Source: Eledone cirrhosa
Taxonomy: Eukaryota
DNA length: 64,000 nucleotides
Reading direction: 5' to 3'
Assembly: GCA_964016885.1 (NCBI GenBank)
Contig: OZ024742.1
Coordinates: 193,502,001-193,566,000 of the forward strand
Positions 6,144 through 47,047 of this stretch are shown piece after piece (position 1 is the stretch's first letter; the number at the start of each line of letters is the position of its first letter). The position numbers were made by a program, and so were the translations under genes. The notes beneath the pieces are model-generated. The model was not told the origin of the DNA, made no database searches, and saw nothing but the letters and a program-made list of their open reading frames with translations.

Positions 6144-8117
6144 ACATGTGTACATTCCCGACAGATTCTTCCACGACAACCTCCACCTCATGCGATACAT
6201 CGTAGAGAGGGTAGCTAGGGAACCTGGCACGGGTGGGTCCTTGATCAATTTAGATCAGTCAAAAGCTTTCGATAGGGTCGACCATCGTTACCTAGCGGCA
6301 GTCCTGAGGGCGGCTGTCTTTGGGCCCGTCTTCAGAAGCTGGATGGCTGCTATGCACAGCGACATCTTCTCTGTGGTGAGAGTGAACGGTCACCTTTCGG
6401 AACCGTTAAACATCATGCGCTAGGTCCACCAAGGATGTCCCCTGTCGTCGCTCTTGTACGTATTGACTCTGGAGCCATTACTGCACAAACTGTAGACGTT
6501 GAGGGTGTTCCCACGCGAAATAGGATGCGGAAGATCCGTGACAGCATATGCGGACGGGTCAGCATATGCGGACGATGTCACTGTAGTAGTGCGATCGGCA
6601 CCACACTAAGAGAATACGAAGCGGTGACAGGAGCACTGATCAACCAGGAAAAGTCAGTGGGTCAGCAGCTCGGCACCTGGAGAGGCAGGTCCATGCCATC
6701 CAACAGCGTCGTCGGGCGCTGGACGGATGGACGAGTTAAATTGCTAGGGGTCTGGTTCGGTCCGGATCTCCAGACGGACAAAAACTGTGACAAGGTGACG
6801 AGCAGGGTGGCTTCTCTCACCCAGAAATGGGCCGAGAGGAAGCTATCCCTGAAAGGTCGAGCGGAGGTGGCTAACGCGTATATCGCGTTCGTCATCTACT
6901 ACCGCCTGACCGTCGTACCTTGTCCGAAGCCCCGCCTGACTGCGCTGGAGCGTTTGCTCTTTCGCTTTTTGTGGAAGGGACGCGCTCCGATGATCAGGCG
7001 GTCCATCTTCTGTCAACACCCGCTACGTGGAGGGCTGGGAATGCCGTGACTGATGATGCGCAGACACGCTCTTAGGCTACGACATCTCCACCTCTTCCTT
7101 GACGGTGATCAGGTGTGGTCTCCGTTTGCTAGACACTATTTCCCCAGCTCGTCTCCTGGGTCAAGCGAAGACCGAGAGGGAGCGCTTGGAGACTAGAATG
7201 ACTTCAGGCGCTCACAGCCCTCGACCAATCGGGCAATGTGATCGGTGGAAACTCCATCTTGGCGTTCTATATAGGATTAGTGGAGGGGAAGAGCGACGAC
7301 GTACTTGGGAAAACTCTAGCGGAAATCAACTAGCCAATCTCTTCGGAAAACTTTCGGGCCGGTGCCTATGGACAACTTCCAGAAATCCCTGGCCTGGCAG
7401 TGCTACCGAGGAGCTTTGCCAGTTCGGGATAAACTCTACAGGCATGGAAGTGCCATCACCCGGGCATGTCCTAGATGTGCGGAGGGCGACGAAATCGTCC
7501 AGTGTCCGAGCATTGCTGGCTTGTGGGTTTATGTCGAACAGCTACTGTCGCGTGTAGGAAGGATCCGGCTATCAGCTGTGTCCATCGTGAGGATTGCCCC
7601 GTCATCTTCCTTTAGCCCTGAAGGGCAGGCAGCTTTTATCTGTTAGGTGGACATGGCGAAAGATTAGTATGGTGGGCGCATTTGAAAGGGCTGAAGACGA
7701 GCACTTACCTCTTCTGTGATGCCCTGATAAAATCTTTCAAATTTCATTTGAAAAGGAAAATCAGGGTAGAGAAGGAAGTGCTCTCCTGCCAGCATTTTGT
7801 TGAAAGATGGGTGAGAGAGGCAAGAATGGCCCGAGTGAATGGGCCTACTCTGAGTATGTGTCTGTAAATTACAGGTGGAAAACTGGGAGAGGGAAATTGC
7901 CCTGGTGGTCAGGGTCACTGTGGCTTTTTAATGGGCTTTCACCACGAATGTCCCTCGGAAGTCTCCCCCCGTATTGGGGAAATTTTCATTGTTATTTTTT
8001 GTTACATCCTCTGTTTTTGTTTTTTACACGCAGAAATGCCCATTTGTACTGTCCTGTATTGTCCTGTACTGTCCTTAATGTCTACTTTATGTAAACCCTT
8101 GTGGTTAATAAAGAAAG

Positions 8118-8118
<1 letters not shown>
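6144..8118 (+). mobile_element. L1/Tx1-like LINE copy T1, 5'-truncated and decayed
   Basis: RT fragments (INLDQSKAFDRVDH, KLSLKGRAEVANAY); same 3' UTR as T3/T4, ending AATAAAGAAAGC then (ATT)n. Confidence 0.9.
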
Positions 8119-8151
<33 letters not shown>

Positions 8152-8292
8152 GAAGCATAGAGTTACCTCCCTGTATGATCTGAGTTCAAATCCCGCCCAG
8201 GTTAACTTTGCCTTTCATCCTTCTGGGGTCGATAGAATAAAGTACCAGTAATGCATTGGATAATTGCTGGCCTTGTGCCAAAAGTAGAAACA
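8152..8292 (+). mobile_element. tRNA-derived SINE (MetaSINE-like core), 5'-truncated
   Basis: B-box GAGTTCAAATCCC, core TTTGCCTTTCATCC..GGGGTCGATA, (ATT)n tail. Confidence 0.85.
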
Positions 8293-8313
8293 ATTATTAT
8301 TATTATTATTATT

Positions 8314-8948
8314 CCTTGAATCTCAGTCATTGATGTTAGTTAACTGGAAAGTCCGTTGGAATGAATATCAAGCCACTACCTGCAGCCTCAGATATTCAGG
8401 ACGTATCGAAGTGTTCTTGCTGTTCCCAGCAAGCATGCCTTTTGAAGCGTTTCAAAAAGCGTGAAGGGGCCGATTTTCTTTAACCATCCCTGGAAACTTT
8501 TGGAGATAGTACCTAGTGCGCCTATGACAATCGGGATCACTTCGACTTCATGGCAGTTCCAAATCCTTTTTACCTCCCACTTTAAGTCTTGGTATCGGTT
8601 AATTTTCTGCCTCACCTTCTCTTGCACTCTCGTGTCGAATGGGCAGGCCACATCCACAATCAGACACGCTCTTTTTTCTTTGTCCACAACCACCAGGTCA
8701 GGTCTATTGTGTTCCAGTTTCTTGTCCGTCTGTATCCTAAAATCCCACAGCACCTTCACCTGATCGTTCTCCATCACCGCCTCTGGCCTATGCTCATACC
8801 ATTTCTCAGAATGTGGTAAATTGTTTACTTTGCACAGGTGCCAGTGGATCACCCTGCCCATCACATCATGTCTCCAGCCCTTATAGTGGGTCTGGGCTAG
8901 GTGTTTACACTCGGATACAATATGAGCCACAGTCTCCTCTCTCCTCTC
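8314..8948 (-). mobile_element. R4/Dong-like retrotransposon family A copy A1, 5'-truncated (~0.6 kb)
   Basis: ETVAHIVSEC, RHD and RPDLVVVD..IVDVACP (PD..D restriction-like endonuclease); bounded by (ATT)n. Confidence 0.9.
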
Positions 8949-9012
<64 letters not shown>

Positions 9013-9018
9013 GTTATT

Positions 9019-12000
9019 GAAGGTGAAGCCACGCTTCTTATCACCTTCAGTTTACCTCGTTTTCAACCGGTCTAAACCTTTAATTCAAGTTTTAATTTTG
9101 ATAAAAATTTAGGAGTGACCCACCTAATATGGGGTGTCGTATCGTGTAAAAATATTATTTTAAAAAAAAAAAAAAATTATTTCAACATGGATAACCCAAG
9201 ATAGAAAGAGAGCGCTGTCAGACAACACAGAGAGTGGAAGTCTTTGTCAACATATGAACAAGACAGAGTTCTAGCGGAGGTAAATATAAAAAAATATTAC
9301 GAATGAAAAGAGGAACAGTATCATTTTTAATGATATTGTTACAGATTTAAAATTACCAAATATTTTTATGATAAACAACACCAACAACAACACCATCAAT
9401 AAAAACAGCAATAAGAAAAACAACAGCGGTAAGGTCGAGAACGACAATAACAATGACAATAACAACATCCACAACAACCATAATAGTAGGAAGAGTATCA
9501 ACAAAAACAACAATAATAACAACAGCCACAATAACAGTAACAACAGCAACAGTATCAACGAAAACAACAACAACAACAGCAACAACAGCAACAACAGTAC
9601 CAACGAAAACATCAACAATGACATCGACACCTGTAACAGCGATCTCAGCACCACCAGCAAGACCAGTAGCGGCAGCAATAGTGGTGCTGCTGAAAAAGGG
9701 ACCAATTCTTTTGCAGGTGTCGCCTGAATTATCGAAACAGTGTTAGTCACAAAGGAAGAGATGGCAGTCGCAAGGGCCATGGTGACAAGAAGCGCCAATA
9801 GAGTTTCCCTGAAACCTCCACCCGATTTTTTCAAGTACCAGCAGCTACGGACGGTAAATTACCGCACCGTAAGCAAAATGTCACATCGGGTGGGGAGAGC
9901 CACGGAGGCTCCAATCCAAAAGGCCTTGCGGTGCGTCTGGGGACGCAGAACCCACATCAATCGAGGCAGAAAGTACGCCACGGTAGAATATTTTCGCCAC
10001 CTCCCTAAGCAGCGATATCTCACTCTTTGGAAACCCTAAAGAGTGAGGAGATAGGCTTGGTGCCATCCTACTGCGGGAAGAAACTTGTGAGGGTCCTACC
10101 CGACGTGCCCATACCTTGGCTGGCCGCGTCTGTCCTTGCTGCAATCGAGGACAGGACGACCATGCTGCAAGTAGAGAAAATAGGGAGAGAGAACTGGTCA
10201 GGTATAGGCATGGAAATGCTTATACAGACTGACCAGGAATGTATCCCCGATATCATAGACCTCGAGGAAGGACTCCAACTCCCTATAAGCGTGGAAGGAA
10301 GACGGCCAAAATGTTATCTCTGTGAGTCAAAGGGGTCACTTCAGGGCCTTTTGCCCACAAAAGACAGCGAAGAAGAAGGCCCATCTCCTTCCAACCCCTG
10401 GTCTTCTGCTACCAAGAGCAGGGCAGGCAACAAACGCAGAAGCCCCTTCCACGGTGAGTAGGAGGGTAACGTCCGTGGCACCCCTACCAAGTCCACGGAC
10501 AACTAAAGCAGCAGCATCAATGGCGGCAACACCAGTAACAACATTTGCAGTAGCTACACCAGCAAGAATATCGCCGGAGAGGGCTCCACTGCCACCACCA
10601 CCAACAGCCGTGGAGCAGATACCCCTCCCAGACGGTACGGAATCCGACATGGAGTCTGAGGCGGAAGTGAAGTGCCATCGGTCTGCCACAAAAAAGAAAA
10701 AAGAAAAAAACCGTTAGCCTCACCCTTCAAAAGCGAAGGCACATACAGAGGGGTAAACGCTGCAAGGAGACATGCAGCAACACCAACACCATCACCATCA
10801 CCACCACAGGAACCACCGCCAACAACCATCACACCAGCACCAGCATCACCATAAACACCAACAACGCAAACATAACAAAACACACAAACCCAACAGCAAC
10901 AAGAAGAAAACAGCAACAAAATCACCCCTCCCCTCAAAAAGTTCACAGGCATAAACATGGCAATCAAAGACTCATATAACATATAAAGCAGCACAGAGAC
11001 ATCACATAAAAACTACTACACCCCACAGACACCAAGAACGCTCCTGACAAACATAAGCCTCATTGATATCAATATAGAACAGTACAAACTTTTAAAACAA
11101 AAATTCCCCAACGCAGTTGGAGACTTTAGAGGGTCGGTTACCAAGAGGATATACACAGACATCGTCTTGGAAACACCCATAACCAGCCAAAGGGACGGTT
11201 CTACTGTCCCTTCACCACAGGATCAAGGTAAGTGACCCTTTCTCACTTGCCCCGTTTCTTATCCAACATGGCCGTACTTAAAATAGGCAGTATAAATGCA
11301 CGAGGCCTGGGGACATCTGGAAAGCAGGGTCACCTGCTCAACAACCTCAGGTCACTAGATATAGATGTGGTGGCCATCAGCGAGACCAGAATCTCCGAAG
11401 CACGAGCCTTCGCACCGATCTTCGGTGGCTACGATGTATACGCATCTCCCAGCCGACCAGGATTGTGGGCAGGGGATGCCGTCCTTTTTCGGAAAGGCTT
11501 GGATCTCGCCATACGGGCCATCTTCCTGGACCCAGAAGGTAAGTCGATGGTGTTTGACGTGACCGGCTGCGAGGCAATGCTTTCAGGCTAGTAGCCGTCT
11601 ACGCCCCAATTGGGGCAGGACGGCCAGATTTCTTCAGACGTCTAAAGACCTTCTTGGAACGTTCCACTCTTTGTTGTTAGTGGGCGACTGGAATGTTCTC
11701 TTTGATGCACGCTGGGATTGTGTGGGGCTAGTGGATAGGGGAGAATGGTGCAAAAGCCTCACCAACCTGCTCAGACTTTTGAACTGTCTGACAGGTATCG
11801 GCTGGATCACCCGAATGTGCCAATATGGACATGGACAAACCGCATCGGGTCATCCAGATCGTATCTCGATAGAGTATTCTACAGAGAACTAGATAAGGCT
11901 AGTATAAGTTGTCCACAATTTAAAATAGTCGACTACACAGACCACAAATTCGTGAACGGTGAGGTCGACATAGACAGACTCCATAGACAAGGGCCCGGTT

Positions 12001-14587
12001 ACCGGAAGGTGAACGCGTCTTTCCCGGGGCGCAAAGCCTACAAAGACCAGATTAGCGTATTAGTTAAGCGGGCGTTGAGGGGAGCGGTCGTCAACAACAG
12101 GAGGTGGTTCGCCCTCTTCGGGAGCAGCGGCAGCCCGGATCGGGGTATGTACTTCAGTGCATACCTCGACGGACTGCCTCGACTCTCGACGACCGCAGCA
12201 CAGTGTTGCGAAAAACAAAAACAGCCGGTGAAATACGGGAAGCGATGGCTAACTGCACGAGGGGTAAATTGCCAGGTTTGGATGGTCTGCACTATGAGCT
12301 TTATGCATTTATGCCACACTTGTTCGGTGACCTCTTGGCAGGCGTCTACTGCAACTGGTAGCAAAACGGGAGCATTTCCAGTTATGTGAGCCGGGGAGCG
12401 GTGGCACTGCTGAGAACAGACCCGAACAAGCGGGATGTTATGGATAACTTCAAGCCCATAACCCTGCTAAATGTAGAGTTCAAGATTTTAGCGAATGTGA
12501 TAGCAACGAGGTTGGCGATTGTTGTCGAGGGTCTGATGGGTGAGGGGCAGACATGCGCATTCCGGACAGATCCATACACGACAACCGCCACCTCATGCGA
12601 TACATCGTAGAGAGGGTGGTTAAGGAACCTGGCACGGGTGGGGCCCTGATCAACTTGGATCAATCAGAAGCATTCGATCGGTACATAGCTACGGTCCTCG
12701 AGACAGTGGGTTTCGCGCCCGTTTTCAGGGATTGGATAGCTGCGATGTACAGCGACATCTACTCAGTTGTGAGAGTGAACGGTCACCCTTTGCAGCCGTT
12801 CAGCATCATGCGCTCGGTCCGCCAGGGTTGTGCCCTCTCTTCCCTCTTGTACGTAATGGTTCTCGAGCCGTTACTGCACAAACTGGGGGCGATGAGTGGC
12901 GTCCCACGCGAACTAGGATGCGGGAGATCCGAGACGGCTTACGCCGACGGCATCACTGTGGTGGTGTCGAGCACCAGATACATCCAGATACTCCGCACCG
13001 CTCTCAAGGAATACGAAGCGGTGACAGGAGCAAAGATAAACCAGGAAAATTCGGTGGGCTTGAAGGTTAGCACCTGGAGGGGCAAGTACATGCCCTCCGA
13101 CAGCGTCGTGGGGCGTTGGACAGACGGACCAGGTAAATTACTCGGGGTCTGGTTCGGTCCAGACCTCCAGATGGAGAAAAACTGGAGGGAGATGACGAGC
13201 AGCGTGGCCTCCCTCATCCAGAAATGGGCCGAGAGGAAGCTGGGAGGTGGTGGCGAATGCGTACATCGCATCCGTAATCTGCTACTGCCTCACCGTCGTC
13301 CCTCGCCTCGGCCCAACTCTCACCAAAATGGAGCGCCTCCTCTTCCGCTTTTTGTGGATGGGACGCGTTCCTATGTTCAGATGATCAATCTGTGTCAACA
13401 CCCGTTGCGTGGAGGACTGGGCATGCCATGGCTGATGATGCGCAAACATGCGCTGAGGCTGCGACATCTCTGGTGCTTCCTTGACGGTGAACAGGTGTAG
13501 TCGCCGTTCGCCAGGCACGTTTTCCCATAGCTCGTCTCCTTGACGGAGCTGCAGTCCTGGATCAGGAAAAGACCGAGGGATAGCGCTTGGAAACTGGAAT
13601 GTCTCCAGGCGCTCACTGCCCTCTGCCAGCTGGGCACCAGTATTGGTGGAACATCCACCTCGTCATTCTATAGAGGACTAGTGCAGGGGAAGGGCGACGA
13701 CGTTCTCGGAGATATCCAGGGCATCGAAGAAGAACAGCTGTTTACTCTCTTCCCGAGAACTTTCAGCCCAGGGCCTATGGATAACTTCCAAAAATCCCTG
13801 GCGTAGCAGTGCTACCGGGGAGCGTTGACGGTTCGAGATAAGCTCTACAGGCACGGAAGTGCCGTCAGCCGAGCCTATCCGAGATGCGCGCTGAGCGACG
13901 AAATCGTCGTGCACGCACACTTTCAGTGCCCGAGCATTGTTGACTTGTGGAGCTATGTCGAACAGTTGCTGTCGCGTGTAGGACTGATCCGGCTATCGAA
14001 TGAGTCCATTGTACCGATGATCTCGCCGTCTTCCTTCGAGGAGAAATGGCAGCCGGTTTTAATCTGCCTGGTGGCCATAGCGAAAGAGAATGTGTGGTGG
14101 ACAAGGTTGAAAGGGTTAAAGACAGAGACTTTCCTCTTCGGCGAATCCCTAATTAACTTTTTCTAGTTTCACTTGAAGAGAAAAATCAGGGTGGAGAGTA
14201 GCAAGTTTGTTGAAAGGTGGGTGAATGTAGCGAGAATGGTCCGAGTGAACCGGACCGCACTGAATATACGTCTGTAGTTTGAGAAATGGAAAAAATTTAG
14301 AGAGGGCGCTTGCCCTGGTGATCAGGATGGCCGTGGTCTTTTGTGTGGTTTTCGCCACGAGTAACCCTCGGAGGTTTCCCCCCTATTGGGGAATTTTTCA
14401 TTGTTTTAATTTTCATTTTTATAGTTTATATATATATATATATATGATTCTATGTATTTTTTTTCTTTTATTATATAAATAATAAAAATCTTTACACGCA
14501 CAAAACCCATATCGTACCGTCCTGTAGCGTCATGTGCCGTCTGTAATGTTTTTCTTGATGTCCGCCCTTGTGGTCAATAAATAAATC
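9019..14587 (+). mobile_element. L1/Tx1-like LINE copy T2, near full length, decayed, with internal ORF2 deletion near 12110
   Basis: Fragmented ORF1 (CYLC..GH..FC knuckle), APE start MAVLKIGSINARGL near 11268, RT fragments; (ATT)n at both ends. Confidence 0.9.
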
Positions 14588-14614
14588 ATTATTATTATTA
14601 TTATTATTATTATT

Positions 14615-15477
14615 ACAGTTGCATTTATCTTGCTTTATGTTCATACGAGTTATCACCAAGTCACAACCAGTGACCTCAAGAGACAACAAGGTCCGCCATG
14701 TTCAACAAAGAACATACATACTCACACATGCATCTTTAGTGTTTAGACTTGTGATGTACTTATATTGACAGAATCTTCCTTAGTATATGGGCAGTTCCCA
14801 TTAGTACTATATTTTGTATTTCTCCTATACGCGGGTTTCCTGGGATTTGCGATAAGTAATCATTAGACCCCTTAGGTATCATTCCCAGAGCGCCTACAAC
14901 CACTGGCATTGTTTTAGTGCTCAATTTCCACATTTTTCCAATTTCTATCTCCAGGTCCTTATACTTGCTCAATTTTTCAAATGTTTTTATAGATACATTC
15001 TTGTCTATTGGAACAGACATATCAATTAGCAGGCATACCCTCTTTTTAAAGTCCTTCAATATTATATCAGGTCTATTTGCATCTATTTTTCGGTCTAAAG
15101 TTCCACAGGATTGAGATGTGATCTTCTTCAAGTATGGGAGGTGGTTGATGTTCCCACCAATTCTTTTGATGGGGCAGGTCAAAATGCTTACACATTATCC
15201 AATGTATATATTGTGCAACTCTGTCATGCCTGTTTAGGTATTCGGTTGGAGCTATAGGACTGCACATCGAAATTATATGATCAATTGTCTCTGGTTGTTT
15301 TTTGCATACACGGCATAATGGGCTGCATCCATTTTTTATTATGTTGGCTTGGTAATTTTTTTATGGCAGACACTGATCTTGTGCTGATATAAACAGTCCT
15401 TCAGTCTCCGATTTCAGTCCAGAGGATGCCAACCACTGATGGGTTAAAGTTTTGTCAACATCAGGATTGTTAGCTCG
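14615..15477 (-). mobile_element. R4/Dong-like family B copy B1, 5'-truncated
   Basis: RHD and RPDIILKD..IDMSVP endonuclease motifs; family B 3' UTR; (ATT)n linkers. Confidence 0.9.
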
Positions 15478-15499
15478 TTATCATTATTATTATTATTAT

Positions 15500-18400
15500 T
15501 TGAATTTATCTTGCTTTATGTTTACATGAGTTATCACCAAGTCACAACCAGTGACCTCAAGAGACAACAAGGTCCGCCATGTTCAAGAAAGAACATACAT
15601 ATTCACACATGCATCCTTAGTGTTTAGACTTGTGATGTACAGAATCTTCCTTAGTATATGGGCAGTTCCCATTAGTACTATCTTTTGTATTTCTCCTATA
15701 CGCGGGTTTCCTGGGATTTGCGATAAGTAGTCGTTAGACCCCTTAGGTATCATTCTCAGAGCGCCTACAACCACTGGTATTGTTTTAGTTCTCAATTTCC
15801 ACATTTTTCCAATTTCTATCTCCAGGTCCTTATACTTGCTCAATTTTTCAAATGTTTTTATAAATACATTCTTGTCTATTGGAACAGACATATCAATTAG
15901 CAGGCATACCCTCCTTTGAAAGTCATTCAATATTATATCAGGTCTATTTGCATCTATTTTTCGGTCTGTTTGGATGCTAAAGTTCCACAAGATTGAGATG
16001 TGATCTTGTTCAAGTATGGGAGGTGGTTGATGCTCCCACCAATTCTTTTGTTGGGGCAGGTCAAAATGCTTACACATTATCCAATGTATGTATTGTGCAG
16101 CTCTGTCATGCCTGTTTAGGTATTCGGTTGGAGCTATAGGACTGAACATTGAAATTATATGGTCAATGGTCTCTGGTTGTTTTTTGCATACACGGCATAA
16201 TGGGCTGCACCCATTTTTTATTATTATGTTGGCTTGGTAATTTTTTGTTGGCAGTCACTGATCTTGTGCCGATATAATCAGTCCTTCAGTCTCCGATTTC
16301 AGTCCAGAGGATGCCAACCACTGATGGGTTAAAGTTTTGTCAACATCAGGATTGTTAGCTCGCTCTGGGTATTTTCCATACAGAGGCTTTTCTTTCCATT
16401 TCTTAGCCAGTTTCTGTAGCAGTTCTTTCTTTGCAGTTACTTTTACCTGCTTTGCTTTTTCTGTGTTTTCCATTTCAGCAGTAAATGGGACTTCTGAAAT
16501 TTGTAGTCCATTACTGTATCTTTGTGCATCTTTTGTAATGGAATATGATCTTTTGGTGCTTTCGTGTTTCAAAACGAGTTTGATCATGCAATCATGTGAT
16601 TCCCTTAGATATGTGGATAATCCAATTGTTGCAGTTTTCAACGCAATGTCTAACTGGATTAACCCACGACCTCCTTCTTTCCTAGGGAGATATATTCTAT
16701 CTATGTCTGCCTTAGGGTGATGCATTCTGTGCATGGTTAAGAATTTTCGGATTTTTGTATCGAGCCTACGGATCTCTGTGCTTGACCAGTTGTTGACATT
16801 GTAACTGTAGGTTACTACTGGTATGGCAAGCGTGTGTATGGCATCGATCCTATTCCTTGCATTCAATTCCGTTCTTAAGATTGCTCTGACTCTGCGCTAA
16901 CATTCCTTCCTTATCCTTTCCCTCATTGTCGAGTGCTTGATCCCGTCTCCTTCACAAACACCTAGATATTTGTAAGTTTTTTCTTGATCAAGCTCTCTTA
17001 TCATGTTCCACCGATCAAGATTAATGTCTGAACTCTTCAGCAGCTTTCCTCTGGTGAACGTTGCTTTGGCGCATTTATCCAGTCCAAACTCCATTTTAAT
17101 GTCATCACTGAACTGCTTCACAGTGGATAATAGCCCTTGCAATTGTTCATCATTTTTTGCAAATAGTTTCAGGTCATCCATGTAGAACAGGTGATTAATG
17201 GTTTTGTCATAGACTCTATATCCATGTTTTGTTTCATTGAGCATTTTACTTAATGGTATGAGTGCGATGCAGAATAAAAGCGGTGATAAAGTGTCACCCT
17301 GAACAATTCCACAATTAATGTTAACTTCTCCAGCTTCCAGTGATTTTGTTTCACTATTCAAAAGGAGTGTCGTTCTCCATGTCCTCATACTGAATGACAA
17401 AAACCTCCTGACAACGGGGGATATTTTGAAAATCTCTAAACATTTTTCAATCCAACTGTGTGGCAAACTATCGAATACTTTTTTATGATCTATCCAAGCA
17501 ATCGATAGATTTTTGTGTCTATTATGACAATCTTCCAGTATCATTTTGTTAACCAGAAGCTGATCCTTACAGCCATATGAGCCTCGTTTACACCCTTTCT
17601 GCTCAATGGGAAATAAGTCATTTGTTATCAGGTGGTCATATGTGTATTCAGTTAGGACTGATGTTAAAATTTTATACATTGTGGTCAAGCAGGTTATCGG
17701 TCTGTAATTTTTGGGATTGTTTGTCTCATCATTCTTCGGTAGCAGGAATGTAATGCCGTTAACTAGCCATGATGGTATCTTTTCTGGCTCCTTAACTATT
17801 TCATTGTAAAGTTGGGCTAACAGCTCATGAGACTCTGTGAAGGCATTTATCCAAAAGTTTTGTATTTTGTCTTTTCCTGAGGATTTCCATTTGCTGGTTT
17901 TTCTTAGAGCCAAGCGCAGCTGTTCAACTGTTATATTTTCCCATGTTTGTTCTTCAAGGTGAGCTGTTTCTTTCATTTGTCTGTCTGTCCATGGGGCATG
18001 TATGTTATGAACTTTTTCTTCGGCCCAGATCTTTTCCCAGAACTCTTGCACTTCCTCCTTGGGTGGTATTGATTTAGCAGTTATTGTTGACATACCAATG
18101 TTTCTGTAGAAGTTTATTTGGTTGTTTTTGAACATATTATTGTCCTTATAGAATCTAGATCGTTTTTCAAAGCGCCTTATACGAGCAGCTTTGGCCGACA
18201 CTTTTTGCTTGATTGTTTCTATCAGCATGTCTATGTCACATGTTGATCTTATACTGTACTTTTTTTTCAATTTTCTAAGTTTAGTTTGTTTAACATGTTC
18301 ACCTACTTTATAGTTTGTTAAAATGTCTATGTCAGATCGGAGAAGGTTTATTTGGCGATTGATGTTATCTAGCCAAGTAGATTTCTTGTGGGAATTCCTC

Positions 18401-20129: not shown

Positions 20130-20149
20130 GTCTTCTTCCCCTTCTTCTT

Positions 20150-20236
<87 letters not shown>
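20130..20236. repeat. Compound (CTT)n(ATT)n microsatellite
   Basis: Seen directly in sequence. Confidence 0.95.
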
Positions 20237-31911: not shown

Positions 31912-32213
31912 ATTAAAGGTGGAAAACTGGGAGAGGGCACTTGCCTTGGTGGTCAGGGTCATTGTGGCTTTTTACTGGGCTTTCTCCACAAATGTCCCTC
32001 CGAAGTCTCCCCCCTATTGGGGAATTTTTCATTGTTATTTTCATTGTTATTTTTGTTACATCCTCTGTTTTTGTTTTTTTTTACACGCAGAAATGCCCAT
32101 TTGTACCGTCCTGCATTGTCCTGCACTGTCCTTAATGTCTACTTTATGTAAACCCTTGTGGTTAATAAAGAAATCATTATTATTATTATTATATTATTAT
32201 TATTATTATTATT

Positions 32214-35812: not shown

Positions 35813-35833
35813 ATTATTATTATTATTATTATT

Positions 35834-38105
35834 ACAGTTGCATTTATCTTGCTTTATGTTCATACGAGTTATCACCAAGTCACAACCAGTGACCTCAAGA
35901 GACAACAAAGACCGCCATGTTCAAGAAAGAACATACATACTCACACATGCATCTTTAGTGTTTAGACTTGTGATGTACTTATATTGATAGAATCTTCCTT
36001 AGTATATGGGCAGTTCCCATTAGTACTATCTTTAGTATTTCTCCTATACGCGGGTTTCCTGGGATTTGCGATAAGTAATCATTAGACCCTTTAGGTATCA
36101 TTCTCAGAGCGCCTACAACCACTGGTATTGTTTTAGTTCTCAATTTCCACATTTTTCCAATTTCTATCTCCAGGTCCTTATACTTGCTCAATTTTTCAAA
36201 TGTTTTTATAGATACATTGATGTCTATTGGAAAAGACATATCAATTAGCAGGCATACCCTCTTTTTAAAGTCCTTCAATATTATATCAGGTCTATTTGCA
36301 TCTATTTTTCGGTCTGTTTGGATGCTAAAGTTCCACAAGATTGAGATGTGATCTTTTTCAAGTATGGGAGGTGGTTGATGCTCCCAGCAATTCTTTTGAT
36401 GGGGCAGGTCAAAATGCTTACACATTATCCAATGTATGTATTGTGCAGCTCTGTCATGCCTGTTTAGGAATTCGGTTGGAGCTATAGGACTGCACATTGA
36501 AATTATATGGTCAATGGTCTCTGGTTGTTTTTTGCATACACGGCATAATGGGCTGCATCCATTTTTTATTATGTTGGCTTGGTAATTGTTTGTTGGCAGA
36601 CACTGATCTTGTGCTGATATAATCAGTCCTTCAGTCTCCGATTTCAGTCCAGAGGATGCCAACCACTGATGGGTTAAAGTTTTGTCAACATCAGGATTGT
36701 TAGCTCGCTCTGGGTATTTTCCATACAGAGGCTTTTCTTGCCATTTCTTAGCCAGTTTCTGTAGCAGTTCTTTCTTTGCAGTTACTTTTAGCTGCTTTGC
36801 TTTTTCTGTGTTTTCCATTTCAGCAGTAAATGGGACTTCGGAAATTTGTAGTCCATTACTGTATCTTTGTGCATCTTTTGTAATGGAATATGATCTTTTG
36901 ATGCTTTCGTGTTTCAAGACGAGTTTGATCATCCAATCATGTGATTCCCTTAGATATGTAGATAATCCAATTGTTGCAGTTTTCAACGTAATGTCTCACT
37001 GGATTAACCCACGTCCTCCTTCTTTCCTGGGGAGATATATTCTATCTATATCTGCCTTAGGGTGATGCATTCTGTGCATGGTTTAGAATTTTCGAATTTT
37101 TGTATCGAGCCTACGAATCTCTGTGCTTGACCAGTTGATGACATTGTAACTGTAGGTTACTACTGGTAAGGCAAGCGTGTTTATGGCATCGATCCTATTC
37201 CTTGCATTCAATTCCGTTCTTAAGATTGCTCTTACTCTGCGCTTACATTCCTTCCTTATCCTTTCCCTCATTGTCGAGTGCTTGATTCCGTCTCCTTCAC
37301 AAACACCTAGATATTTGTAAGTTTTTTCTTGATCAAGTTCTCTTATCACATCCCCCCGATCAAGATTAATGTCTGAACTCTTCAGCAGCTTTCCTCTGGT
37401 GAACTTTGCTTTGGCGCATGTATCTAGTCCAAACTCCATTTTAATGTCATCACTGAACTGCTCCACAGTGGATAATAGCCTTTGTAATTGTTCATCATAT
37501 TTTGCAAATAGTTTCAGGTCATCCATGTAGAACAGGTGATTAATGGTTTTGTCATAGACTTTATATCCATGTTTTGTTTCATTGAGCATTTTACTTAATG
37601 GTATAAGTGCGATGCAGAATAAAAGCGGTGATAAAGAGTCACCCTGAAAAATTCCACAATTAATATTAACTTCTCCAGCTTCCAGTGATTTTGTTACACT
37701 ATTCAAAAGGAGTGTCGTTTTCCATGTCTTCATACTGAATGACAAAAACCTCCTGACAACGGGGGATATTTTGAAAATCTCTAAACATTTTTCAATCTAA
37801 CTGTGTGGCAAACTATCGAATGCTTTTTTATAATCTATCCAAGCAATCGATAGATTTTTGTGTCTATTATGACAATCTTCCACTATCATTTTGTTAACCA
37901 GAAGCTGATTAACACCCTTTCTGCTCAATGGGAAATAGGTCATTTGTTATCAGGTGGTCATATGTGTATTCAGTTAGGAGTGATGTTAAAATGTTATACA
38001 TTGTGGTCAAGCAAGTTATCGGTCTGTAATTTTTGGGATTGTTTGTCTCATCATTCTTCGGAAGCAGGAATGTAATGCCGTTAACTAGCCATGATGGTAT
38101 CTTTT
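35834..38105 (-). mobile_element. R4/Dong-like family B copy B3, 5'-truncated (~2.3 kb)
   Basis: RT FYMDD in 37083-37745; CRVC..H..C and endonuclease in 35979-36986. Confidence 0.92.
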
Positions 38106-38124
38106 TATTATTATTATTATAATT

Positions 38125-41100
38125 ACAGTTGCATTTATCTTGCTTTATGTTCATACGAATTATCACCAAGTCACAACCAGTGACCTCAAGAAACAACAAG
38201 GTCCGCCATGTTCAAGAAAGAACATACATACTCTCCCATGCATCTTTAGTGTTTAGACTTGTGATGTACTTATATTGACAACATCTTCCTTAGTATATGT
38301 GCAGTTCCCATTAGTACTATCTTTTGTATTTCTCCTATACGCGGGTTTACTGGAATTTGCGATAAGTAATCATTAGACCACTTAGGTATCATTCCCAGAG
38401 CGCCTACAACCACTTATATTGTTTTAGTTCTCAATTTCCACATTTTTCCAATTTCTATCTCCAGGTCCTCATACTTGCTCAATTTTTCAAATGTTTTTAT
38501 AGATACATTCTTGTCTATTGGAACAGACATATCAATTAGCAGGCATACCCTCTTTTTAAAGTCCTTCAATATTATATCAGGTCTATTTGCATCTATTTTT
38601 CGGTCTGTTTGGATGCTAAAATTCCACAAGATTGAGATGTGATCTTTTTCAAGTATGGGAGGTGGTTGATGCTCCCACCAATTCTTTTGATGGGGCATCT
38701 CAAAATGCTTACACATTATCCAATGTATGTATTGTGCAGCTCTGTCATGCCTGTTTGGGTATTCAGTTGGAGCTATAGGACTGCACATTGAAATTATATG
38801 GTCAATGGTCTGTGGTTGTTTTTTGCATTCACGGCATAATGGGCTGCATCCATTTTTTATTATGTTGGCTTGGTAATTTTTTGTTGGCAGACACTGATCT
38901 TGTGCTGATATAATCAGTCCTTCAGTCTCCGATTTCAGTCCAGAGGATGCCAACCACTGATGGGTTAAAGTTTTGTCAACATCATGATTGTTAGCTCGCT
39001 CTGGGTATTTTCCATACAGAGGCTTTTGTTGCCATTTCTTAGCCAGTTTCTGTAGCAGTTCTTTCTTTGCAGTTACTTTTACCTGCTTTGCTTTTTCTGT
39101 TTTTTCCATTTCAGCAGTAAATGGGACTTCGGAAATTTGTAGTCCATCACTGTATCTTTGTCCATCTTTTGTAATGGAATATGATCTTTTGATGCTTTCG
39201 TGTTTCAATACGAGTTTGATCATCCAATCATGTGATTCCCTTACATATGTAGATAATCCAATTGTTGCAGTTTTCAACGTAATGTCTAACTGGATTGACC
39301 CACGTCCTCCTTCTTTCCTAGGGAGATATATTCTATCTATGTCTGCCTTAGGGTGATGCATTCTGTGCATGGTTAAGAATTTTCGAATTTTTGTATCGAG
39401 CCTACGAATCTCTGTGCTTGACCAGTTGATGACATTGTAACTGTAGGTTACTACTGGTATGGCAAGCGTGTTTATGGCATCGATCCTATTCCTTGCATTC
39501 AATTCCGTTCTTAAGATTGCTCTTACTCTGCGGTAACATTCCTTCCATATCCTTTCCCTCATTGTCGAGTGCTTGATTCCGTCTCCTTCACAAACACCTA
39601 GATATTTGTAAGTTTTTTCTTGATCAAGTTCTCTTATCACGTTCCCCCGATCAAGATTAATGTCTGAACTCTTCAGCAGCTATCCTCTCGTTAACGTTGC
39701 TTTGGCGCATTTATCTAGTCCTACTCCATTTTAATGTCATCACTGGTCTGCTCCACACTGGATAATAGCCCTTGCAATTGTTCATAATTTTTTGCAAATA
39801 GTTTCAGGTCATCCATGTAGAACAAGTGATTAATGGTTTTGTCATAGACTTTATATCCATGTTTTGTTTCATTGAGCATTTTACTTAATGGTATAAGCGC
39901 GATGCAGAATAAAAACGGTGATAAAGAGTCACCCTGAAAAATTCCACAATTAATATTAACTTCTCCAGCTTCCAGTGATTTTGTTTCACTATTCAAAAGG
40001 AGTGTCGTTTTCCATGTCTTCATACTGAATGACAAAAACCTCCTGACAACGGGAGATATTTTGAAAATCTCTAAACATTTTTCAATCTAACTGTGTGGCA
40101 AACTATCGAATGCTTTTTTATAATCTATCCAAGCAATCGATAGATTTTTGTGTCTATTATGACAATCTTCCACTATCATTTTGTTAACCAGAGGCTGATC
40201 CTTACAGCCATATGAGCCTCGTTTACACCCTTTCTGCTGAATGGGAAATAGGTCATTTGTTATCAGGTGGTCATATGTGTATTCAGTTAGGACTGATGTT
40301 AAACTTTTATACATTGTGGTCTAGCAAGTTATCGGTCTGTAATTTTTGGGATTGTTTGTCTCATCATTCTTCGGAAGCAGGAATGTAATGCCGTTAACTA
40401 GCCATGATGGTATATTTTCTGGCTCCTTAACTATTTCATTGTAAAGTTGGGCTAACAGCTCATGAGACTCTGTGAAAGCATTTATCCAAAAGTTTTGTAT
40501 TTTGTCTTTTCCTGGGGATTTCTATTTGCTGGTTTTTCTTAGAGCCAAGCGCAACTGTTCAACTGTTATATTTTCCCATATTTGTTCCTCAAGGTGAGCT
40601 GTATCTTTCATTTGTCTGTCTATCCATGGGGCATGTATGTTATGAACTTTTTCTTCGGCCCAGATCTTTTCCCAGAATTCTTGCACTTCCTCCTTGGGTG
40701 GTATTGATTTAGCAGTTATTGTTGACTTACCAATTTTTCTATAGAAGTTTCCTTGGTTGTTTTTGAACGTATTATTGTCCTTATAGAATCTAGATCGTTT
40801 TTCAAAGCGCCTTATACGAGCAGCTTTGGCCGACACTTTTTGCTTGATTATTTCTATCAGCATGTCAATGTCACATGTTGATTTTATACTGTACTTTTTT
40901 TCAATTTTCTAAGTTTAGTTTGTTTAACATGTTCACCTACTTTATAGTTTGTTAACATTTCTATGTCAGATCGGAGAAGGTTTACTTGGCGATTGATGTT
41001 CTCTTGCCAAGTAGATTTCTTGTGGGAATTCCTTTGTTTTTTCATCTTCACTCCACATCAGTGAGTGGTGACTTTAGCCGATGCATAATAGAGATGATTT

Positions 41101-42215
41101 AAATCAGTAATGTTTAGTTTGTTGGTGATGATAATGTTTTTGAGAATTATGTTAGTCTTGTGTATTATCTTTTGGTTCTGTTTGGAGTTCTGGATCTTAG
41201 GGAGGGTGTCTCGTTGCCCCATGTCAGATTCTTTCATTTTCATCCATTCGATCATAATTTCATCCTTCAAGTTGGCAAGTTCATTCTCATTCATTTCTTT
41301 ATCATTTACGATCTCATTATTTTCATTTGGAGTTTCATTCTGAGCATGCACTCCCTCCACTTTTTCGATCCTTTCTTTAATTTGTTCTGTTGCCAGTGAT
41401 TCCGCCCCAACCCTGGGAATCGAAGTGTTACAGTTTACCTCGTTTTCACTGACACATGTTTCATTTTCCCTTCGCTGACTTTGTGCTAATAGCTTGATCT
41501 GATCAATTTCTATATCTGTTAGTAACTTTTTTCTTACAATATTTCTTCGTATATTGGCTAGTTTGTTACTGTCAATATAGCCCCTGTTTTCGGGATGTTT
41601 CTTTTTCCAGTTGATATATGTCTGTTCTGTATTCGATGTATTTGATGGGTAGTACATGGCAGTGTAGAAAGCCTCAAGGACTTCTTTATTATCTTCCCTT
41701 GACCATTTTTCTCATTTTTTCTTTGGATATCTTGGTGGTGAGCATGGAGCGCCAACAGTAGGAGTATTCCGGTTATGGGAGGTCTCCAGCTCCGAAGAGA
41801 TGGGATGGTTTGAACCATTAGCTGATTTTTCGACCCCAGTCTGGTTCCTCACTGAGGGACGCGGCCCTTTTTTATCCGGGTGACGGCCGATCCGGTATGA
41901 GATTTTATCATTTGACATTTACTTTATTTTGTCGCGTTTTATCCTTATCCGCCAAGGGGTAATCATTTCGTGTTACCACTTCTAGAACGAGTGTCAACCA
42001 AGACTAGAGGGGTCGTTCTCCCCTAGAGACACGGCTATTCCCCGCCGGCCGCCATCCCGGTATTTCTTGGTCACGGAGTTTTCTTTTTGTTGTTTTTTTA
42101 AATTGTTATTATCATGAGTGGTTCCTTAATGTGAGCATTGCGTGGCTTAAGAATGAAATTATTAATAATTGTCTCGACTCCAGGCACAAGGCCAGCAATC
42201 ACCCAGTGCATAACA
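38125..42215 (-). mobile_element. R4/Dong-like family B copy B4, full length with several stops
   Basis: ORF pieces from 41918 down to 38414; 5' UTR nearly the same as B2. Confidence 0.92.
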
Positions 42216-42260
<45 letters not shown>

Positions 42261-42269
42261 GTTGTTATT

Positions 42270-45200
42270 CCTTGAATCTCAGTTATTGATGTTGGTTAAC
42301 TGGAAAGACCGTTGGATTGAATATCAAGCCACTACCTGCAGCCTCAGATATTCAGGACGTATCGGAGGTTTCTTGCTGTTCCAAGCAAGCATGCCTTTTG
42401 AATCGTTCCAAAAAGCGTGAAGGGGCCGATTTTCTTTAACCATCCCTGGAAACTTTTTGAGATAGTCCCCAGTGCGCCTATGACAATCGGGATCACTTTG
42501 ACTTCATGGCAGTTCCAAATCCTTTTCACCTCCCACTTTAGGTCCTGGTATCGGTTAATTTTCTCCCTCTCCTTCTCTTGCACTCTCGTGTCGAACGGGC
42601 AGTCCACATCCACAATCAGACACGATCTTTTTTCTTTGTCCACAACCACCAGGTCAGGTCTATTGTGTTCCAGTTTTTTGTCCGTCTGTATCCTAAAATC
42701 CCACAGCACCTTCACCTGATTGTTCTCCATCACCGCCTCTGGCCTATGCTCATACCATTTCTCAGAATGTGGTAAATTGTTTACTTTGCACAGGTGCCAG
42801 TGGATCACCCTGCCCATCACATCGTGTCTCCAGCCCTTATAGTGGGTCTGAGCTAGGTGTTTACACTCGGACACAATGTGAGCCACAGTCTCCTCTCTCT
42901 CTCCACAGATCCTGCACAGTGGGCTAGCCTCCTCCTTGTAGATATGGTGCTTCAACCACTTCGTTTTGAGGGCCTGCTCCTGCGCAGCCATTAGCATTCC
43001 TTCTGTAGCCTTTTTGAGGTCCCCTCTTCTCAACCAGTTCCATGTCTGTGGATCTCTAAATTCAGTTTTCTCAAAGTAGGTACTATGAAGGGATTTTCCC
43101 TTAAGGCTGCTCTTCCTCCTTGATGTTATTTCCTCCTTGGATATCCCCTGGCCTACTGTCCCCTCCTTCAGTACAGTTCTGAGCATTGGCTCCTTACTAT
43201 AGGTCACGTATTTGTATAGGTTGTTTTTCTCCATCTGAACACAGTCCTCTATGCTGATAAGACCTCTTCCACCCTCAGATCTCCTTAGGTAGAGTCTATC
43301 GACATCACTCCTCTTGTGGAACATGTTGTAGATAGTCAATAGCTTCCTAGTCTTCCTATCCATTTCTTTTTGTTCAGCAACATTCCATCTCAGAATTCCC
43401 GCACTGTACCTAATAATAGACACAGCTCGGGAATTTACTGCGCCTATGGCATTTCTGCTGTTCAGATGTGACTTCAATACGCTCCTTACTCTCCGAATGT
43501 ATTCACTTCTTAACAATTCCTTCATTTCTTTGTTCTTTATGCCATCAGCCTCCAGAACGCCCAAATACTTGTATCCTTCCTCAGAGTCAATTTCCTTTAT
43601 CATCTCACCTGTTGGTATCTGGATCCCGTTACTTCTGCTCAACCTACACCTCTTCATTACAATGACTCCACATTTACCAATACCAAACTGCATACATATA
43701 TCACTGCTGAAAATACGGACAGTGTCAACAAGCACATCCAACTCCTTCTCACTTTTCCCGAAGAGCTTAAGATCGTCCATGAAGAGGAGGTGATTGATGG
43801 TAAGCTCTCCCCTTCCCAACTTGTATCCTGCTCTCACTTTTCGCAGCATAATGGTCAAGGGCATCACGGCAAGGACAAACAACAGAGGGGACAGGCTATC
43901 TCCCTGGAAGATACCTCTCTTGATCTTCACGCTTCCCAAGGATACTCCAGTTGATGTCAACTCTGTCTCCCAGGACCCCATACTCCTGCCTAGCAACTGT
44001 CTGATGTTATCTGCCACCCTGAAGATCTCCAGGCTTTTGGTGATCCAGGAATGAGGCACCATGTCAAATGCCTTTCTGTAGTCTATCCATCCCATGGCAA
44101 GATCAGTGTGTCTCCTCCTGCAATTCCCCATTACCATCTTATCAATAAGTAACTGGTCCTTTGTACCACGTGACTTCTTTCGGCATCCTTTCTGTTCGTC
44201 CGGTAACAAGTTGTTTGTGTGGAGGTGATGGTAGATTTCCTCAGACACAATGCTCGTCAACAGTTTCCACATTACGGGCAGACATGTGATAGGTCTATAG
44301 TTGGTAACATCATTACCCTTGATTCGGTCTTTCATTATCAGAACTGTGGTACCTTTTGTCAACCACTCTGGCACCTCACCCGACACCAAGCAGTCATTGA
44401 ACATGGCCGTCAGCTTCGGGTGGAGGGCTGTTAAATGTTTAACGCAATACCCCTGCACACCATCTGGGCCTGGTGATTTCCAGTTGGTTAGTTTTTTGGC
44501 CTGCCCCTTAAGAGTTTCAACTGTGATACTCAAATCAGTTTGTTGCTGTGCCTGCTCACCGATCTCCCTCTGTACTGTCTCAATCCACCCTGCCTGGGCA
44601 TTGTGTCTAACATCCTGCTCCCATATTCCTCTCCAGAATGTTTTAGTTTGCTCCGCCCCAGGGATCAAGTCGTTGCCTCTTTCTTTCCCCTCAAGCTGTC
44701 CAAACAGCATCTTCTGGTTGTTGTCGAACATGCGGTTCTGTTTATACTGACTGACTCTGTTCTAGTATCGCCTGATTTTTGCACTCTTTGCTACAATGCG
44801 TTGCTTCAATTCCTCTATGATAATATTTAGCTTTTTACTCCTAGTTTTGTATTTTATTTCCAGTCTATTTTTAGTGCCTATGATTTTTAGTGTCCCATTC
44901 AGTAGTGACTCAAGCTTTCCTATGTCATTTCTCATTTCCCCGATTTGCCCACTCAGTCGCTTCTTCCACCACGGCTCTGCTCTTTCTTGTCTGTTGTTTC
45001 CTCTCGCTTTTATACCAAGTAGTTTCCTCACCGTATTTGCTGTTGCCTTGAGGATATTGTTGCACTGGTGAAGGCTCCTCGCCTCAAGGTATGGGATGAC
45101 TTTGTTTACCTTAGCTGTTGTTTCTTTTAACTTTTTCCTGTCTACAAATCTTAGGTTCATAGGTCTCCCACTATCATTGTTCAAATCATCTACCACTAAA

Positions 45201-45905
45201 TTTAGGATGTCAACCGAATCTTGTCCTAGCCCGTCAGCATTCATCTCCTCAGTGGCCGTATCTCTGTTCCAGGTATTATTTATCTCAGTATTCAGATCAT
45301 TGTCTGCTTCGGGTGGTTCCTCCGTTCTCAGGACCTCTTCACCTTCATTTCCCACTGGCTCGCTTGTCTGGCATACTACACCCGCCATCTCCAAGCCATT
45401 CTCTCTGCTCAGTTCCTCCAGTTCCAGCTCGCCTATCCATCCATTAGTTCTTATTACCCGAGCCTGCCCGGCCAATTTTTGTTCATCTAATTTAAATAAA
45501 CCAATCTCGTTCCAGATGTTATGCATCCGTCTCCTGTAGCCCCTCTCCTTGGGGTTACTTTTCAGGTAACATTGCATAACAGTTCTATTCAATTCTTTCG
45601 TCCAGTTGGTTCTGGCCCCTTTCCTTCTTCTCCTTCCTCCAACATCAGCAGTATTTGGTTGACAGTCAGGTTCCTGCTGCTGAGCCAGGGGGCACCTGTT
45701 GGGTGAGAGTCTGTCACATGACGTTCTAGTCTCCATTTCACCGTTATTCGAACTGTTTATGTTCGATATTTAAACACTCTTATCGAGGATTGGCGAATGT
45801 ATGGTTACATATCCATCTGTGGATCCGCCATTCCACTTGGCCCTTGTGTGGCATTATCACCACGCTGTATACGAACACACATAAACAAACAAACACACAG
45901 GCAGA
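42270..45905 (-). mobile_element. R4/Dong-like family A copy A3, full length, near intact
   Basis: Single long reading frame; (ATT)n at both ends. Confidence 0.95.
42344..45736 (-). pseudogene. A3 polyprotein: Myb-like N-terminus, RT, CCHC finger, restriction-like endonuclease (1130 codons, one stop)
   Basis: 44762-45736 and 42344-44731 are in frame, separated by a TAG at 44762-44764; motifs RTNWTKELN, QGDSLSP, LFMDD, CRIC..H..C, RHD, PD..D. Confidence 0.93.
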
Positions 45906-45941
45906 ATTATTATTATTATTATTATTATTGTTATTGTTATT

Positions 45942-47046
45942 CCTTGAATCTCAGTCATTGATGTTGGTTAACTGGAAAGTCCGTTGGATTGAATATCAAG
46001 CCACTACCTGCAGCCTCAGATATTCAGGACGTATCGGAGGGTTCTTGCTGTTCCAAGCAAGCATGCCTTTTGAAGCGTTCCAAAAAGCGTGAAGGGGCCG
46101 ATTTTCTTTAACCATCCCTGGAAACCTTTGGAGATAGTCCCCAGTGCGCCTATGACAATCGGGATCACTTTGACTTCATGGCAGTTCCAAATCCTTTTCA
46201 CCTCCCACTTTAGGTCCTGGTATCGGTTAATTTTCTCCCTCTCCTTCTCTTGCACTCTCGTGTCGAACGGGCAGGCCACATCCACAATCAGGCACGATCT
46301 TTTTTCTTTGTCCACAACCACCAGGTCAGGTCTATTGTGTTCCAGTTTTTTGTCCGTCTGTATCCTAAAATCCCACAGCACCTTCACCTGACTGTTCTCC
46401 ATCACCGCCTCTGGCCTATGCTCATACCATTTCTCAGAATGTGGTAGATTGTTTACTTTGCACAGGTGCCAGTGGATCACCCTGCCCATCACATCGTGTC
46501 TCCAGCCCTTATAGTGGGTCTGGGCTAGGTGTTTACACTCGGACACAATGTGAGCCACAGTCTCCTCTCTCTCTCCACAGATCCTGCACAGTGGGCTAGC
46601 CTCCTCCTTGTAGATATGGTGCTTCAACCACTTCGTTTTGAGGGCCTGCTCCTGCGCAGCCATTAGCATTCCTTCTGTAGCCTTTTTGAGGTCTCCTCTT
46701 CTCAACCAGTTCCATGTCTGTGGATCTCTAAATTCAGTTTTCTCAAAGAAGGTACTATGAAGGGATTTTCCCTTAAGGCTGCTCTTCCTCCTTGATGTTA
46801 TTTCCTCCTTGGATATCCCCTGGCCTACTGTCCCCTCCTTCAGTACAGCTCTGAGCATTGGCTCCTTACTATAGGTCACGTATTTGTATAGGTTGTTTTT
46901 CTCCATCTGAACACAGTCCTCTATGCTGATAAGACCTCTTCCACCCTCAGATCTCCTTAGGTAGAGTCTATCGACATCACTCCTCTTGTGGAACATGTTG
47001 TAGATAGTCAATAGCTTCCTATGTTGTAGATAGTCAATAGCTTCCT
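45942..47046 (-). mobile_element. R4/Dong-like family A copy A4, 5'-truncated (~1.1 kb), open frame
   Basis: ORF 46016-47011 is nearly identical to the A3 C-terminus; 26 bp duplication at the 5' junction. Confidence 0.93.
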
Positions 47047-47047
47047 A

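Follow-up and report, generated by a model that had tools for sequence, protein, structure and literature searches.

Among retrotransposons that lack long terminal repeats (non-LTR), or long interspersed elements (LINEs), Dong of the R4 clade targets (TAA)n, with hosts among insects, molluscs and cnidarians (PMC7998251), and the Dong of Bombyx carries a 5' ribozyme (PMC3774820). Families of the Tx1 clade are described on other microsatellites, Kibi on (TC)n, Koshi on (TTC)n and crocodilian families on (TTCC)n/(TTTC)n (PMC4494074). Convergence of two endonuclease classes on one target has a precedent in Keno, a Tx1 element with an apurinic/apyrimidinic endonuclease (APE), and Utopia, with a restriction-like endonuclease (RLE), which both insert at the same site in the gene for U2 small nuclear RNA (snRNA) (PMC4640811), and opposite polarity has a precedent in SART and TRAS, whose opposite-orientation arrays occupy the telomeric repeats of Bombyx (PMC10088271). 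The present analysis concerns 64,000 nucleotides of Eledone cirrhosa (assembly GCA_964016885.1, contig OZ024742.1, positions 193,502,001 to 193,566,000 of the forward strand), hereafter the window, in which copies of an L1/Tx1-like APE lineage and of two Dong-like RLE families form one array. The array is read, with high confidence, as 12 separate insertions stacked in one (ATT)n/(AAT)n tract, in a fixed orientation per lineage, likely through repeated target-primed insertion with nicks on opposite strands. What carries this reading is the anatomy of the array, the independence of its copies, a rule of flank and orientation that holds genome-wide and the clustering of the elements, all directly observed; what appears to be new is an L1/Tx1-like lineage on (ATT)n that shares its target with Dong-like elements on the opposite strand, in arrays across the genome.

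The Dong-like families, which occupy the minus strand of the array, resemble Dong in their single open reading frame (ORF) with a reverse transcriptase (RT, Pfam RVT_1) and a C-terminal PD-(D/E)xK stretch, in that no N-terminal zinc finger is seen, and in having (TAA)n, read in the sense of the element, on both sides, the target by which R4/Dong elements are recognised. They differ in forming two families, B and C, which have 38% protein identity to each other and a shared 5' head, and in that no ribozyme like that of hepatitis delta virus (HDV) was found; family B has at least 10,523 copies and family C at least 4,782, counted as 3' ends in exact-pattern searches of the 3.0-Gb genome, a method whose counts are lower bounds. 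The APE lineage, on the plus strand, shares with Kibi and Koshi two ORFs, an APE-RT-zinc finger ORF2, insertion into simple repeats and a fixed orientation, and differs in its target, (ATT)n with minor (CTT)n/(ACT)n, and in sharing that target with an RLE clade (PMC4494074). It has at least 6,639 3' ends and about 3,800 full-length heads (at least 1,700 of subfamily A, 1,788 of A2 and 328 of B). Keno and Utopia likewise represent APE and RLE lineages that reached one target in parallel, with Utopia sometimes in tandem, but their 3' flank is described as the same, and hence the strand, and the site is a low-copy gene (PMC4640811); in the present case the microsatellite is abundant and regenerates, the two lineages use opposite strands of it, and mixed arrays of tens of kb result. 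SART and TRAS are alike in being two lineages on one simple repeat, in opposite orientation and in arrays, but both are APE elements of the R1 clade, and in the account given they are confined to telomeres (PMC10088271), whereas here two endonuclease classes are involved at interstitial sites across chromosomes. In the papers searched, Repbase not being among the sources, neither an (ATT)n-specific Tx1-like family that shares the Dong target on the opposite strand nor a mixed array of this kind was found.

Self-comparison and repeat scans assign 40,319 of the 40,895 bases at 6153-47047 to 12 LINE copies, the remainder being (ATT)n linkers of 18-96 bp, one (CTT)13 run and a 141-bp short interspersed element (SINE) at 8152-8292. 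All four L1/Tx1-like copies lie on the plus strand and all eight Dong/R4-like copies on the minus strand, and no LINE is inserted in another. An earlier note on this DNA, made from its letters alone, had described 12 copies end to end, none inside another, with four APE copies on plus and eight RLE copies on minus, and on these points it is borne out by the same scans and by domain matches and alignments (the copy at 9019-14587 has a gap of about 360 bp, that at 38127-42215 about 250 extra bp). The array that it placed at 6144..47046 is real, with its start moved to near 6153, where ATT is lacking. (ATT)n stands on the plus strand at every internal junction and at the right end, as it had seen for nearly every junction, although two of its tracts, listed at 15478 and 47047, lie at 15483-15500 and 47048-47082; those at 8119 and 8293 both exist, but the SINE between them had been missed. 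Its three families were too few: among the APE copies there are three subfamilies, which differ in their 5' untranslated regions (UTRs) and in ORF1, beside the two RLE families. The window holds 18 ATT/AAT runs of at least four units, of which 14 lie at array junctions, all 14 with ATT on the plus strand, and 69 (TA)n tracts of at least seven units, of which one lies within the array, in a 3' UTR.

The insertions are independent, because each comparable copy has a closer relative elsewhere: over the last 620 bases, the nearest relative of 11 out of 11 copies is found at a distant locus and not in the array. The copy at 9019-14587, which has no comparable partner within the array, was left out of this comparison. 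The 5' truncation points differ among all array copies.

The earlier note had proposed a check of flanks, orientation and clustering at copies elsewhere, and this check, made on genome samples, came out in its favour. Flanks of heads and 3' ends were counted by eye over 16-18 bases in 100 listed matches per pattern, mostly on contig C1. Among these matches (ATT)n precedes 299 of 300 full-length APE heads (99/100 for subfamily A, 100/100 for A2 and 100/100 for B), nearly always in the same phase before A and A2 heads; the 3' ends of family B lie on a repeat in 100/100 cases (99 ATT/GTT, one CTT) and those of family C in 100/100, and about 84/100 family C heads adjoin at least two units and about 10 adjoin (CTT)n. 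Orientation was read at 170 fetched loci, picked by element ends or tracts with orientation ignored, which yielded 253 distinct tracts, with ATT at 147 of the 149 APE ends and AAT at 153 of the 157 RLE ends; of the four exceptions among RLE ends, two are a SINE mistaken for family C UTR. The strict opposite polarity that had been claimed follows from the fixed strand of each lineage. A strict test of the 3' flank was passed by 62 of 70 APE anchors and 39 of 40 RLE anchors, and the remaining eight APE flanks still start with ATT.

Truncated ends provide the stricter test of the target, because a 5'-truncated end cannot carry an element-borne repeat. Of the 70 APE anchors, 16 had a 5' end that lay beyond the fetched locus, another 25 proved full length (25/25 on ATT) and 29 were scored as truncated, of which 11 lay on ATT by script; hand sorting showed that L051 is a full head with a deletion, leaving 12 of 28 on a clear ATT tract, with the qualification that L030 and L031 may be one duplicated event. 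Among the 40 RLE anchors 35 were scored as truncated, 24 of them on AAT, which became 24 of 31 after hand sorting, four misses being due to a gap in the reference library. The background of tracts by the same rule is 34/6,000 and 27/10,000. Both lineages are target-specific, the APE lineage with some slack: that (ATT)n is the common target of all, as had been claimed, agrees with the flank counts, but the APE lineage is also found on (CTT)n, (ACT)n and short ATTAT sites. On each count (299/300 heads, 12/28 truncated ends, 62/70 3' flanks) it lies above the figure of more than 20% on one repeat that is applied in the pertinent section of PMC4494074. The (TA)n tracts, which the note had held to be unused, were rejected as a target, since despite their abundance they are touched by 0/300 listed APE heads and at most 1/28 truncated APE ends; in 200 kb taken at fixed positions there are 231 such tracts of at least seven units against 14 ATT/AAT tracts, making (TA)n about 16 times commoner. 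In the same 200 kb, a small and noisy sample, these lineages and their relatives cover about 4% and 2%.

The elements also cluster. Of the 175 ends listed for the first 49.9 Mb of C1, 132 have another no more than 15 kb away, where 2,000 random draws gave a mean of 17 and a maximum of 38; a family B end is found within that distance of 38 of the 75 APE ends (3.1 at random), and 79 of 87 adjacent end pairs share their ATT strand. The array of the window is a large example of a common structure, not a special site. At C1:55423691-55455638 and C1:114792139-114810547, full-length copies of subfamily A follow one another in groups of four to six, about 6 kb apart, as pure head-to-tail arrays. The features of the window array are collected in Table 1; immediately left of the array, at 5193-5929, there are repeats of 140-260 bp in both inverted and direct orientation, with 92-93% identity, which may represent a small foldback element.

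Table 1. Elements and linkers of the array, in order along the window.
Feature	Positions	Strand
L1/Tx1-like subfamily A, 5'-truncated at about position 4000 of 6026; 5' junction without ATT	6153..8118	+
(ATT)11 linker	8119..8151	+
5'-truncated SINE ending CCTTGTGCC...AGAAACA; polarity as the Tx1-like copies	8152..8292	+
(ATT)7 linker	8293..8313	+
Dong-like family B, 3' fragment of 635 bp	8314..8948	-
(ATT)21 linker between two 5' ends	8949..9018	+
L1/Tx1-like subfamily B with full-length head; lacks about 360 bp	9019..14587	+
(ATT)9 linker, tail to tail	14588..14615	+
Dong-like family C, 3' fragment of 867 bp	14616..15482	-
(ATT)6 linker	15483..15500	+
Dong-like family C, full length 4640 bp; 1.1-kb 5' UTR from GGGAAGAAG; ORF with stops and frameshift	15501..20140	-
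(CTT)13(ATT)19 linker between two 5' ends	20141..20236	+
L1/Tx1-like subfamily A2, full length	20237..26131	+
(ATT)6 linker	26132..26149	+
L1/Tx1-like subfamily A, full length 6026 bp; ORF2 28492-31911, 1139 codons, two internal stops	26150..32175	+
(ATT)n linker, tail to tail	32176..32213	+
Second subfamily of Dong-like family B, with 90% identity to 42261-45905; most of 5' UTR missing	32214..35812	-
(ATT)7 linker	35813..35834	+
Dong-like family C, 5' truncation within RT region	35835..38104	-
(ATT)n linker	38105..38126	+
Dong-like family C, truncation in 5' UTR, about 250 extra bp	38127..42215	-
(ATT)15 linker	42216..42260	+
Dong-like family B, ORF 45769-42344 (1141 codons, one internal stop); most of 5' UTR missing	42261..45905	-
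(ATT)8 linker	45906..45929	+
Dong-like family B, 1.1-kb 3' fragment; 26-bp duplication at 5' end	45930..47047	-
(ATT)11 tract, right array end	47048..47082	+

The clade names given to both lineages are drawn from domains, motifs and target, and are putative. In the longest plus-strand copies ORF2 matches Exo_endo_phos, RVT_1 and zf-RVT (Pfam) and aligns colinearly with human L1 ORF2p (residues 5-503, E 2e-14), an APE-RT-zinc finger architecture that assigns these copies to the L1 group, comprising the L1 and Tx1 clades. The copy at 26150-32175 has a 5' UTR and an ORF1 with a CX2CX4HX4C knuckle, the motif CFRCGSKTHLRAFC in translation; a Gag-like ORF1 with this knuckle is what we take to be typical of Tx1 and unlike vertebrate L1, and the Tx1-like label would follow from it together with the targeting. 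ORF1 of the APE copies matched no Pfam family. Subfamilies A and A2 are 95% identical in the DNA of ORF2 and 3' UTR but have different 5' heads, with ORF1 43-59% identical in protein over matched stretches, and the ORF2 protein of subfamily B is 62-68% identical to that of A. The heads of A and A2 are unrelated (20237-22390 and 26150-28410) and each is present at about 1,700-1,800 copies, which has the appearance of a 5' module swap. Some 3,500 A and A2 heads beside 6,639 3' ends suggest that about half of the copies are full length, unusually many for a 6-kb LINE, a rough ratio in that head and 3'-end patterns are unequal in sensitivity. Distant L1/Tx1-like copies (68-79% identical; L174, L178, L190) lie in 10-kb stretches with zero or one ATT tract, so that ATT specificity may not extend to all families of this group. 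In a quick tree without labelled references the two RLE families stand together, far from the APE proteins.

On the minus strand, the family B ORF at 45769-42344 encodes an RT, a CCHC finger and a PD-(D/E)xK endonuclease. R2 proteins are the best of the solved relatives of the RLE protein (E 3e-31), the alignment being weak in the RPDL..D..K stretch, and a match to REase_MTES_1575 was obtained at E 0.02 (Pfam). The N-terminus of the Dong-like proteins gave no Pfam match; the two families have a weak W..E.N motif in common there (E 4e-4), which may be akin to the Myb/SANT-like domain of Dong. Their 5' heads are homologous from GGGAAGAA, with 74% identity over about 340 bp, for which promoter exchange or strong constraint is a possible cause; the shared head (19800-20140 on the minus strand of the window, and L059, L075, L081 and L104) has a GTAAGT motif resembling a splice donor near +45. 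The search for an HDV-like ribozyme returned nothing in Rfam at E up to 0.5, where spurious microRNA matches on (TA)n and (AC)n tracts were the sole hits, and weak AU-rich matches only with a rough home-made descriptor; a metagenome scan with one protein (P0003) found no relative. Heads of family C number at least 501, and its 5' UTR holds a SINE-like fragment common to its copies. Pieces resembling the SINE 3' end, with short ATT, were likewise noted in the 5' UTRs of family C (19290-19333) and A2 (20390-20423), in each case common to copies. The (CTT)n beside about 10 of 100 listed family C heads, and at 20141-20179, matches the first bases of the element, GGGAAGAAG, which suggests slippage of the RT at the end of its template.

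The SINE, with at least 106,316 copies ending in ATT, behaves differently from the LINEs of the array, in that a tract lies on its 5' side at 5 of 30 loci and is absent at 25. Further copies lie to the right of the array, at 47720-47883 and 48541-48683, and the SINE that ends at 47869 is followed by an (ATT)4 tail of its own, in which no LINE sits. Another LINE, presumably CR1-like from its C-terminal motifs, ends in ...CACAATAATTTC(ATT)n and accounts for more of the sampled (ATT)6 tracts than any other source (12 of 30, L141-L170), with a tract at 0 of 6 readable 5' ends. An ATT tail alone is therefore insufficient for the APE pattern, because these two have tails without 5' tracts. APE heads directly after a SINE tail do occur, and it is likely that the ATT tails of the CR1-like LINE and the SINE seed arrays. 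At 24 of the 30 SINE loci the 3' end is readable, and 16 of these 24 have a duplication of 11-20 bp, which starts with ATTAT in 15 of 16 and is preceded by C in nine, T in six and A in one; three of the 16 lie in repeats and are little informative. The APE copy L035 has a 16-bp duplication that also starts with ATTAT, and the 3' ends of SINE and APE elements are alike, with a stem-loop around CTTGT followed by an A-rich spacer. Judged from these sequences, the ATTAT start likely marks the APE nick site. A comparable pair is described in crocodilians, where SINEU shares the target signature of Tx1-Mar with weaker specificity (PMC4494074); the SINE here would likewise combine the signature of a Tx1-like lineage with looser specificity, its link being the shared 3' stem-loop and the ATTAT duplication, and the APE lineage its putative carrier.

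In target-primed reverse transcription the nick falls on whichever strand is antisense to the new copy. Given the fixed orientations, priming would therefore start from the AAT strand in the APE lineage and from the ATT strand in the RLE families, so that of the earlier proposal of opposite nicking by two endonuclease classes the opposite orientation is found genome-wide, and the nicking itself we infer from that orientation. The APE lineage would nick the AAT strand at 5'-ATAAT/R-3', and L1 likewise nicks at a pyrimidine-purine step. The AUU end of the APE RNA may then pair with the freed strand, a second cut 11-20 bp away would give rise to the target duplication, and one machinery could serve both APE elements and SINE. 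In the RLE families the nick would fall on the ATT strand, and the template would begin at a (UAA)-like RNA end. Insertion within a tract keeps the repeat on both sides, as the note had stated and the flanks bear out, and each event would therefore add one target, usable by both lineages. An array would grow in this way, each insertion likely adding a target for both, and the first tracts would often be the ATT tails of CR1-like LINEs or SINEs. In other LINEs it is the endonuclease that sets the target, according to the TRAS1/SART1 swaps described in PMC1919474.

Several observations weigh against repeated insertion into (ATT)n. The left end of the array, near 6153, is the sole end in it without ATT. 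Among the 28 truncated APE ends seven have no repeat, five have short ATT, three lie on (CTT)n/(ACT)n and one is on the reverse strand. The strand differs in 8 of 87 adjacent pairs, and most of the samples were taken within the first 60-120 Mb of C1. The SINE nick signature would be tied to the APE lineage only by the shared 3' stem-loop and ATT end, and the carrier of the SINE could be another LINE.

The alternative that survives best is that the target is selected by RNA, the APE nuclease being loosely specific for ATTAT and the repeats at the RNA ends, an AUU tail and a co-transcribed upstream (AUU)n, choosing the tract; it is regarded as possible, though less likely than not. It would account for full-length heads being on ATT in nearly 100% of cases and in a fixed phase, compared with about half of truncated ends, and for the SINE lying in tracts at only 5 of 30 loci although it has the same ATTAT signature. 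Family B, moreover, has subfamily-specific variant tails such as AATAACAATAAC, and because these recur at many loci, flank-like repeat is copied together with the element. On the other hand, a 3' tail may consist of one ATT followed by other sequence (L008, L016, L043) and a 5' repeat of just two or three units, so that long RNA-borne repeats are unnecessary. The contrast between full-length and truncated ends and the inherited variant tails favour some contribution of RNA; this would alter the recognition step and not the array model, and endonuclease and RNA may act jointly.

That the array is an assembly chimera joined at microsatellites is unlikely. Short reads, restriction site-associated DNA (RAD) reads and short-read contigs do not bridge it, which counts against stacked insertion, but the linkers, at 18-96 bp, are small beside any long read, each truncated end is unique yet adjoins ATT, and raw reads of two other samples join a truncated family C end through (ATT)n. 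Misjoining would also leave the ATT 5' of isolated copies and the 16-bp duplication at L035 unexplained.

It is also highly improbable that the APE elements are untargeted, their own (ATT)n tails being attacked by Dong-like elements and the clusters reflecting survival in gene-poor regions. Tails without 5' tracts do exist, as in the SINE (25/30) and the CR1-like LINE, but these tailed, untargeted families behave differently from the APE elements, of whose listed full-length heads all but one of 300 have the repeat on the 5' side. Head-to-head linkers are common (25 of the 253 tracts), and those at 8949 and 20178 in the window are the 3' tail of no element, because each separates two 5' ends. 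An origin of linkers from tails only was rejected, being contradicted by the 5'-junction counts. Just as improbable is local tandem duplication or unequal crossing over at microsatellites, which two neighbouring family B copies of 98-99% identity and exact tandem duplicates at some other loci (L062) might suggest and which may add to other arrays, but which is contradicted here as the origin of the array by the truncation point and subfamily proper to every copy and by the closer distant relatives of all 11 comparable ones.

Serial insertion into a self-renewing tract may be part of a wider pattern. Tentatively, and with less assurance than for the contribution of RNA, a community may be pictured in which CR1-like and SINE tails seed ATT, an undescribed (ATT)n-specific Tx1-like lineage, also mobilising the 100,000-copy SINE, and two Dong families colonise its opposite strands and renew the target, and read-through, mutually antisense, yields self-assembling two-strand sources of PIWI-interacting RNA (piRNA) that would explain transposable element (TE) hotspots. 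Each single ingredient has precedent, which limits surprise. The findings add (ATT)n to the targets of APE elements of Tx1 type and name a likely carrier for a very abundant SINE; they also offer a clean natural comparison of two unrelated endonucleases, which would each read one strand of the same three-base repeat, and thousands of copies from which the cut sites can be read. Dong-R4 and L1-Tx1 groups are expanded in coleoids (PMC8967140), and the annotation of Octopus vulgaris reports five recently active Dong-R4 families and 13 L1-Tx1 families together with 288 TE hotspots, for which the part that describes them gives no cause (PMC13282606). Repeated insertion into a tract that is renewed with each event offers a mechanism for local TE hotspots such as these.

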